Shown here: positions 59,790-60,456 of the stretch, piece after piece
How positions within the stretch are numbered: position 1 is the stretch's first letter
How the letters are laid out: each line of letters begins with the position of its first letter
Sequence record: PV714129.1
Reading direction: 5' to 3' (one strand)
DNA: 64,000 bases
From: Escherichia phage Mizar
The notes under the pieces: model-generated
What the model saw: only the letters and a program-made list of their open reading frames with translations
The model's database searches: none
Told to the model about the DNA's origin: nothing
Translations under genes and position numbers: made by a program

Positions 59790-59992
59790 GTCACCTTTAA
59801 GCAGTATTCTTCTACATGCTGTTTACGACCTTTCTTATCAATAAAGGTATATTCAACGAATGTTCCAATGTAGTCTTTATCGACATCATGTGGACTATTA
59901 ATTGGTCATTTAGTACGACAAATGCGTTCCCATTGACGAATAATTACTGCTTTATTTTTAGGATCAAACGGATGTGGGTAATGCACATTCAT
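59790..59992 (-). pseudogene. small ORF interrupted by an in-frame TGA (about 28 + 41 codons); possible pseudogene or recoding site
   Basis: ATG overlapping the macro-gene stop (ATGA), then 28 codons, TGA, then 41 further sense codons in the same frame with no start codon, ending at the next gene; my own reading, not in the ORF track. Confidence 0.25.
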
Positions 59993-60456
59993 AATAATGG
60001 TTCCCAATCAACAATCACAATTTCTAGTTTAGTGGAATATGTATCAAGAATTTCTTCAATGATATCCCAGTTTCCACCACCTATACCTGCACCAATTCTT
60101 GGCATATAAATTACAGGCTTTGTTATCTTATTTTTTCCGAATTCATTTAATTCTATTATACAATTCATTAAAGCATAGTACTCAAAATTAGGTCCCGGCT
60201 CAAACTGTGTATAAAGATTAAAGCAATAAGCTTTATGGGTCTTAAAATATTTTTCATAAACCGAATAGGAACCGAGTTTAGACTCGTCTCCGAATTCGGT
60301 TTGAAGTTTATCGGCTTCTAAAATTTTTGGATAAGCCTTTGCTAATTGACCTGCTACACCGGCGCCCATTGTATGAAAACAATTGCACCCATGAGCAATA
60401 TTATTACCTTTAGAAAACAGGGCGACAATATCGCCCTTGATATAGTTTTTAATCAC
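59989..60456 (-). CDS. macro-domain protein (ADP-ribose binding/processing fold)
   Basis: 155 aa; GDIVALFSKGNNIAHGCNC...GAGVAG...MPRIGAGIGGG matches macro-domain Gly-rich motifs. Confidence 0.65.
   Translation of the reverse strand: MIKNYIKGDIVALFSKGNNIAHGCNCFHTMGAGVAGQLAKAYPKILEADKLQTEFGDESKLGSYSVYEKYFKTHKAYCFNLYTQFEPGPNFEYYALMNCIIELNEFGKNKITKPVIYMPRIGAGIGGGNWDIIEEILDTYSTKLEIVIVDWEPLL

Follow-up and report, generated by a model that had tools for sequence, protein, structure and literature searches.

What does a phage of the T-even group gain from a small, stand-alone macrodomain protein: does it erase ADP-ribose that a host defence toxin places on phage DNA, and if so, by which chemistry? 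This question is raised by the gene tk.4 of Escherichia phage Mizar, which we analysed in a stretch of 64,000 nucleotides from sequence record PV714129.1, below called the window, whose numbering is used throughout. According to the list of open reading frames (ORFs) and the sequence itself, the tk.4 (adfM) coding sequence occupies positions 59989..60456 on the minus strand, begins with GTG and encodes a stand-alone macrodomain protein of 155 aa, below window Tk.4. Our assessment is that this protein is quite probably AdfM (anti-DarT factor, macrodomain), an orphan antitoxin-like protein that would undo the DNA marks made by DarT2.

Orthology with T4 tk.4 and the proposed role against DarTG2

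The window genome is a Mosigvirus (RB69-like; Straboviridae, Tevenvirinae), whereas T4 is a Tequatrovirus. The 2-kb surroundings of tk.4 show 99.3% DNA identity to Shigella phage SHSML-52-1, in which an annotated coding sequence is found at the same place. The gene order was compared with this phage and with T4, and the window order of tk, three small ORFs, tk.4, vs, vs.1 and regB matches the T4 order tk-tk.1-tk.2-tk.3-tk.4-vs-vs.1-regB. At the protein level, 132 of the 155 residues (85%) are identical between window Tk.4 and T4 Tk.4 (NP_049723), over the full length and with no gaps. The window ORF is the ortholog of T4 tk.4. In both phages the gene sits between tk.3 and vs in the same neighbourhood, is preceded by the same GAGGA element and encodes His22, Asn25 and Gln84. 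The start codons stand at the equivalent place, but T4 uses ATG and overlaps vs by 4 nt, while the window copy uses GTG and shares its first 8 nt with the 3' end of vs.

The function of the T4 ortholog was addressed in a preprint of November 2025, in which a T4 transposon library was analysed by HIDEN-SEQ on a host with DarTG2, and tk.4 was the single significant hit (bioRxiv 10.1101/2025.11.20.689424). The same work reported that a clean knockout of tk.4 makes T4 sensitive to DarTG2, and introduced the name adfM for the gene (bioRxiv 10.1101/2025.11.20.689424). As T4 without adfA and adfN had still been fully resistant to DarTG2 (PMC11825919), the finding on tk.4/adfM fills an earlier gap. 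The sequence-only reading of this DNA had proposed that the protein reverses ADP-ribosylation imposed by host defence toxins, and this agrees with the screen and the knockout reported for the 85%-identical T4 protein (bioRxiv 10.1101/2025.11.20.689424). The interpretation is essentially right but was already published for the T4 ortholog, and there is nothing unusual about the window copy.

The mechanism that we propose begins with the host DarTG2 system, whose DarT2 toxin modifies single-stranded phage DNA by linking ADP-ribose to N3 of the thymidine within TNTC motifs and so blocks replication. Most likely, Tk.4 would hold the ADP-ribose moiety in the cleft between its two Gly-rich loops and would then, again most likely, cut the N-glycosidic bond between ribose and thymine, which would make the DNA replicable again. 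The site would consist of Gln84, Asn25 and His22, the constellation of the Streptomyces coelicolor macrodomain SCO6735, in which the Gln serves to position the substrate and catalysis is proposed to be initiated by an activated water. Our analysis establishes the gene, its fold class, its orthology and synteny with T4 tk.4 and the residue correspondences, and the need for tk.4 in DarTG2 resistance was shown for T4; we infer that the window copy acts as T4 AdfM does, that it protects as an enzyme and that its chemistry is that of SCO6735.

Together with AdfA and AdfN, such a protein would give the T-even phages a layered anti-DarT set, including orphan antitoxin enzymes that erase DNA ADP-ribosylation of any toxin. 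A consequence for annotation is that the gene would be described as adfM/tk.4, macrodomain anti-DarTG2 factor, instead of 'phosphatase' or 'hypothetical protein'.

Macrodomain fold and putative active-site residues

The assignment to the macrodomains, made earlier from Gly-rich motifs, proved correct when the ORF was compared with Pfam and with sequences from the PDB, and when its structure was predicted. All three macro signatures are found in the ORF, namely HGCNC (residues 22-26), GAGVAG (31-36) and GAGIGGG (122-128). The sole Pfam match is Macro (PF01661), with 27.3 bits against a gathering cut-off of 22 and covering profile positions 2-117 of 118. The phmmer search against PDB sequences returned macrodomains: BT1257 (Bt_1257 of Bacteroides thetaiotaomicron) with an E-value of 8.6e-11, yeast Poa1p with 1.3e-8, SCO6735 with 7.7e-5, and the DarG macrodomains and TARG1 with about 1e-3. 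The AlphaFold2 model, for which an alignment of 54 sequences served as input, reached a predicted local distance difference test score (pLDDT) of 95.1 and a predicted template modelling score (pTM) of 0.90. It predicts a three-layer alpha/beta/alpha macro fold with two Gly-rich ADP-ribose-binding loops. The model is nearest in structure to BT1257, Poa1p, DarG and TARG1, while the MacroD, viral nsp3, PARG and macroH2A types are more distant; as modelled, window Tk.4 belongs to the TARG1/ALC1-like macrodomain class.

The name of the protein in public databases varies. The record of T4 Tk.4 states that it 'contains A1pp phosphatase motif', and the label 'phosphatase' is used for PHROG 335 and for some GenBank orthologs, others being entered as 'macro domain protein'; the macro-domain identity of tk.4 has thus long been known. 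The single match of window Tk.4 in PADLOC is DarG (E 3.8e-8). Likewise, the single NCBIfam match is the DarG antitoxin model NF048014, which is reached with 29.5 bits against an equivalog cut-off of 250 and over model positions 4-146 of 338.

The conservation of single residues was analysed in a set of 120 homolog clusters and the window protein (121 sequences). For the comparison with characterised macrodomains, the family alignment (A1) was aligned by hhalign with T. aquaticus DarG and TARG1, and a MAFFT alignment (A3) was made with BT1257, SCO6735, two DarGs, PhiKZ gp104 and TARG1. The numbering of the TARG1 sequence in these alignments agrees with K84 and D125 as published. Four elements, all on the minus strand, make up the putative active site. 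The codons of H22-G-C-N25-C lie at 60379..60393, and in alignment A3 His22 and Asn25 correspond to His24 and Asn27 of SCO6735, Asn25 being also the residue mutated in the N23A variant of PhiKZ AdfM. The first Gly-rich loop, G31-A-G-V-A-G36, is encoded at 60349..60366 and was placed by alignment A3, its role in binding the substrate and diphosphate being taken from the macrodomain literature. Gly31 and Gly33 are invariant over Tk.4, BT1257, SCO6735, DarG, PhiKZ gp104 and TARG1 in alignment A3. The codons of N80-L-Y-T-Q84 lie at 60205..60219. By both the hhalign profile alignment and alignment A3, Gln84 is aligned with the catalytic lysines of DarG (Lys80) and TARG1 (Lys84), and SCO6735 has Gln85 in this column of A3. 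The second, phosphate-binding Gly-rich loop, G122-A-G-I-G-G-G128, is encoded at 60073..60093, with Gly122 and Gly124 corresponding to Gly126 and Gly128 of SCO6735.

Within the family, Gln84, Asn80, Tyr82 and Asp49 are each present in all 121 sequences, Asn25 in 120 of 120 and His22 in 119 of 120. Residue 127 is Gly in 113 of the 121 sequences, the window protein included, and Lys in only three clusters, so the T4 protein that was tested experimentally is the atypical one at this position. The second Gly-rich loop of T4 Tk.4 (L002 5923..6390) reads GAGIGKGNW, with Lys at 127.

SCO6735 and Bt_1257 are Gln-type ALC1-like macrodomains that are 54% identical to each other, whereas their identity to window Tk.4 is only 23-31%. 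SCO6735, with Gln85 at the lysine position, efficiently removes the thymidine-ADP-ribose made by DarT and rescues Escherichia coli from this toxin (PMC9411070). Its variants Q85A and Q85E were inactive, mutants of N27 and G128 (G128E) had reduced activity, and H24Y was misfolded and therefore uninformative (PMC9411070). The authors proposed that an activated water, held by the backbone of Val25, starts the reaction (PMC9411070). They also described a mobile loop with Lys89 that exceeds its DarG and TARG1 counterparts by five residues; this loop was called characteristic of the subclass and tied to the high activity on ADPr-thymidine (PMC9411070). Unlike a phage counter-defence gene, SCO6735 is chromosomal, inducible by DNA damage and linked to antibiotic production (PMC9411070). 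With the numbering matched to PMC9411070, Gln84, His22, Asn25 and Gly124 of window Tk.4 align in A3 with the residue pattern of SCO6735 and Bt_1257. The long mobile loop was not found, as this segment has the DarG/TARG1 length in A3, with eight residues separating positions 84 and 93 in 101 of the 121 sequences. Judging from these residues, a Gln-type protein with a short loop would be the most fitting description of T4-type AdfM.

Several points weigh against the assignment of window Tk.4 as an AdfM that cleaves ADP-ribose from DNA. The support for T4 AdfM consists of preprint genetics only, whose authors write that enzymatic removal 'seems likely' (bioRxiv 10.1101/2025.11.20.689424), and the preprint contains neither a catalytic mutant of T4 AdfM nor its de-ADP-ribosylation in vitro (bioRxiv 10.1101/2025.11.20.689424). 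There are 23 substitutions between the window and T4 proteins, including Gly127 in place of Lys127 in the phosphate-binding loop, Gly being the family consensus. Window Tk.4 has neither the catalytic Lys of DarG and TARG1 nor the 5-residue-longer mobile loop and Lys89 of SCO6735, so neither of the characterised mechanisms transfers cleanly to it. Finally, it is about equally similar to DarG and to Poa1p, an ADP-ribose-1''-phosphate (Appr1p) phosphatase.

This last similarity, which would also account for the database label 'phosphatase / A1pp motif', would be expected if Tk.4 were primarily a Poa1p-like phosphatase that clears the Appr1p left as a by-product of RNA repair or splicing. Poa1p belongs to the same structural class, and its His23 aligns with His22, which is nearly always kept in the family. 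However, the label goes back to an old transfer by homology with no assay behind it, and the sole phenotype found for T4 tk.4 is sensitivity to DarTG2. The column of Ser30 of Poa1p holds Thr29 in the window protein and is variable across the family (Thr in 74 of 121, otherwise Leu, Ala, Gln, Ser or Val), a poor fit to a catalytic Ser/Thr. Moreover, Poa1p, a phosphatase of a small molecule, has Ser at position 84, where the Tk.4 family has an invariant Gln. We consider it unlikely that this is the primary function of the protein.

The preprint's lack of a catalytic mutant bears on another explanation, by which Tk.4 protects without catalysis, either as a sponge for ADP-ribose-containing molecules (derived from nicotinamide adenine dinucleotide, NAD, e.g., the products of Thoeris) or by blocking DarT2 or the modified DNA. 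AdfA and AdfB are indeed non-enzymatic anti-DarT factors, and some macrodomains are pure readers. However, the residues on which the activity of SCO6735 depends (Asn27, Gln85 and Gly128) are all invariant in the Tk.4 family, and His24 is nearly so, which is the pattern expected of an enzyme. Moreover, the 155-aa Tk.4 is without the C-terminal DarT-binding domain of DarG. Protection without catalysis appears rather improbable to us. A role on NAD-derived signalling molecules, the other possibility raised from the sequence alone, was not supported.

For the preferred reading of Tk.4 as an enzymatic AdfM, the absence of the lysine and of the long loop leads to a further, tentative proposal. Tk.4-type AdfM could be a third active-site design among the thymine-ADP-ribose hydrolases, with Gln, without the long loop and Lys89, and independent of the DarG/TARG1 lysine; we regard this as possible, though it would be the less expected outcome. 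If it is true, a lysine-free, water-mediated mechanism may operate in a very widespread phage family. The substrates may then extend beyond DNA thymidine, as in SCO6735, for example, to uracil-ADPr RNA or Asp/Glu-ADPr proteins, and such wider substrates would imply the neutralisation of ADP-ribosylating defences other than DarTG2.

DarG, PhiKZ AdfM and the phage ADP-ribosyltransferases

The macrodomains of DarG (T. aquaticus 5M31/5M3E, Mycobacterium tuberculosis 5M3I and T. africanus 7OMU) have about 20% identity to window Tk.4. The catalytic Lys80 of T. aquaticus and M. tuberculosis DarG lies in an FPTK motif, whereas window Tk.4 has Gln84. DarG also carries a C-terminal DarT-binding domain and is encoded next to darT; window Tk.4 has neither, and its neighbours are vs and tk.3. 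An equivalog relationship to DarG was rejected on the basis of the score (29.5 vs 250 bits), the single domain, the Gln in place of Lys and the absence of darT alongside. Human TARG1 (OARD1) is of the same structural class as window Tk.4, and its His32 aligns with His22; however, it uses a Lys84/Asp125 dyad, for which window Tk.4 has Gln84 and Gly126. Later substrate panels singled out TARG1, DarG and SCO6735 as the enzymes able to remove thymine- and uracil-linked ADP-ribose.

The name AdfM was also given, independently, to gp104 of PhiKZ, a chimallivirus macrodomain described in Cell Reports in 2026, which removes the ADP-ribose made by DarT2 from a TNTC oligonucleotide in vitro (PMC13309987). 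Its N23A variant has lowered removal activity, and the protein rescues from DarT2 toxicity (PMC13309987). Besides the name, the PhiKZ protein shares with window Tk.4 the proposed anti-DarTG2 role, the architecture of a stand-alone phage macrodomain and the conserved Asn (N23 there, N25 here). However, PhiKZ gp104 is a close relative of DarG (E 9.4e-25 to M. tuberculosis DarG) and has the FPTK motif with Lys. Direct homology of window Tk.4 to PhiKZ gp104 was rejected, BLASTP aligning just 23 residues, and with so weak a match the biochemistry of the PhiKZ protein cannot pass to Tk.4 by orthology. As far as the sequences indicate, the two proteins named AdfM represent separate lineages with distinct active-site designs. 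Given the Gln at the place of the catalytic Lys and the lineage apart from PhiKZ, the biochemistry of DarG and PhiKZ AdfM should not be transferred to T4-type AdfM without a test. This mechanistic nuance, i.e., that T4-type AdfM is no copy of DarG and has Gln at the catalytic Lys position, is the main addition of our analysis.

The window also contains two genes for ModA/ModB-like ADP-ribosyltransferases, identified by PHROGs and by direct comparison with T4, at 12155..12763 and 12821..13402 on the minus strand. Their products are strongly diverged from those of T4 (30% and 38% identity), and the Pfam scan of these two ORFs gave no match. The genes are separated by a gap of 57 nt in the window, while they overlap in T4. 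The pair is flanked, as in T4, by srd (11256..12002) and an Mrh-like gene (13800..14264). The statement that writer and eraser activities coexist in this DNA stands as far as the presence of the ModA/ModB-like genes is concerned. The functional pairing with tk.4 implied by it does not, because it rests on co-occurrence in a window of 64 kb.

Such a pairing would mean that Tk.4 erases the marks of the phage's own Alt, ModA and ModB (Arg-linked ADP-ribose or RNA chains) and thereby times or limits the takeover of the host. The macrodomain superfamily does include an Arg-specific member (PMC10951314). However, arginine is the residue modified by the Alt and Mod enzymes (review PMC8120803), whereas the TARG1-like class has been characterised on thymine, uracil and acidic residues, not on arginine, and the ModA/ModB-like genes are not linked to tk.4, from which they lie about 47 kb away. 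Moreover, tk.4 was a hit only under DarTG2, and insertions are evidently tolerated on plain K-12. Erasure of the phage's own marks is therefore, in our opinion, very improbable as the function of Tk.4.

As for other anti-DarT genes, a homolog of T4 gp61.2 (AdfA, a non-enzymatic anti-DarT1 factor) was found at 18163..18810 on the minus strand, with 65% identity and Arg where T4 has His165. By our own count, which takes the second Met as the start of RB69 AdfA, this Arg would fall at the RB69 R164H escape position. If so, the window AdfA would be the RB69-like allele, which was reported to be inactive on DarT1 (PMC11825919). The adfN gene (30.3) falls outside the 64-kb window.

Distribution of tk.4 and local sequence elements

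When 50,697 phage records were searched by tblastn with window Tk.4, relatives turned up in 2,790, and for 2,443 of these the match extends over at least 80% of the query. These relatives span phages of Escherichia, Klebsiella, Salmonella, Pseudomonas, Vibrio, Acinetobacter and Aeromonas. The T-even phages carry two groups of tk.4 alleles at the same locus. The first is about 85-99% identical to the window protein and includes T4, RB51 and the Mosigviruses, while the second is about 55-59% identical and occurs in many Tequatroviruses, e.g., teqdroes and CrRp10, whose copies, at about 58% identity, have a short C-terminal extension. As the two groups cut across genera, the tk.4 gene tree does not track the genus boundary, a pattern suggesting that alleles have been exchanged, or that diversifying selection has acted, at this counter-defence locus. 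Two homologs are labelled as coming from bacterial metagenome-assembled genomes, P0105 ('Nitrospirae') and P0116 ('Bacilli'). The contigs of both are phage-like, and among the genes and domains on them are an Rnl1 ligase, a helicase, polynucleotide kinase/phosphatase domains, a spanin and a dCMP-deaminase domain. No Pfam-annotated ADP-ribosyltransferase that could be a DarT partner was found among the called genes of these two contexts. The close Tk.4 family looks phage-borne.

The start of window tk.4 is preceded by a Shine-Dalgarno-like GAGGA element at 60467..60471 on the minus strand, 10 nt upstream of the GTG and within the 3' end of vs, which a three-way alignment showed to be kept in the window, SHSML-52-1 and T4. 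The first in-frame Met after the GTG, residue 30, already belongs to the conserved core, and GTG is therefore the sensible start of the gene. The promoter scan around tk.4 was uninformative, with 12 sigma-70-like sites against 13.3 expected. Three plus-strand ORFs over tk.4 (59816..60109, 60099..60191 and 60346..60474) were set aside as probable antisense by-products, because the minus-strand frame is conserved in full length across thousands of phage records.

A scan for terminator-like elements revealed a perfect 8-bp GC-rich hairpin (AGGGCGAT-ATT-GTCGCCCT) followed by a T-rich run at 60419..60437 on the minus strand, within codons 7-13 of tk.4. The local RNA fold z-score at this site is -2.4. 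The hairpin lies inside a block of 25 nt (about 60415..60440) in which the window and T4 are 100% identical, synonymous sites included, while the flanks diverge. It may reflect chance together with constraint at the protein level; alternatively, it may act as an attenuator within the gene or as a signal for processing.

Directly downstream of tk.4, tk.3 (59780..59992, minus strand) has a premature TGA at 59906..59908. Codon 29 is TGT (Cys) in SHSML-52-1 and T4, a difference of one base at position 59906, and the product in the window is 28 aa long, compared with 70 aa without the premature stop. The nonsense codon could mean that tk.3 is a natural pseudogene, or it could stem from mutation in the laboratory or from an error in sequencing.
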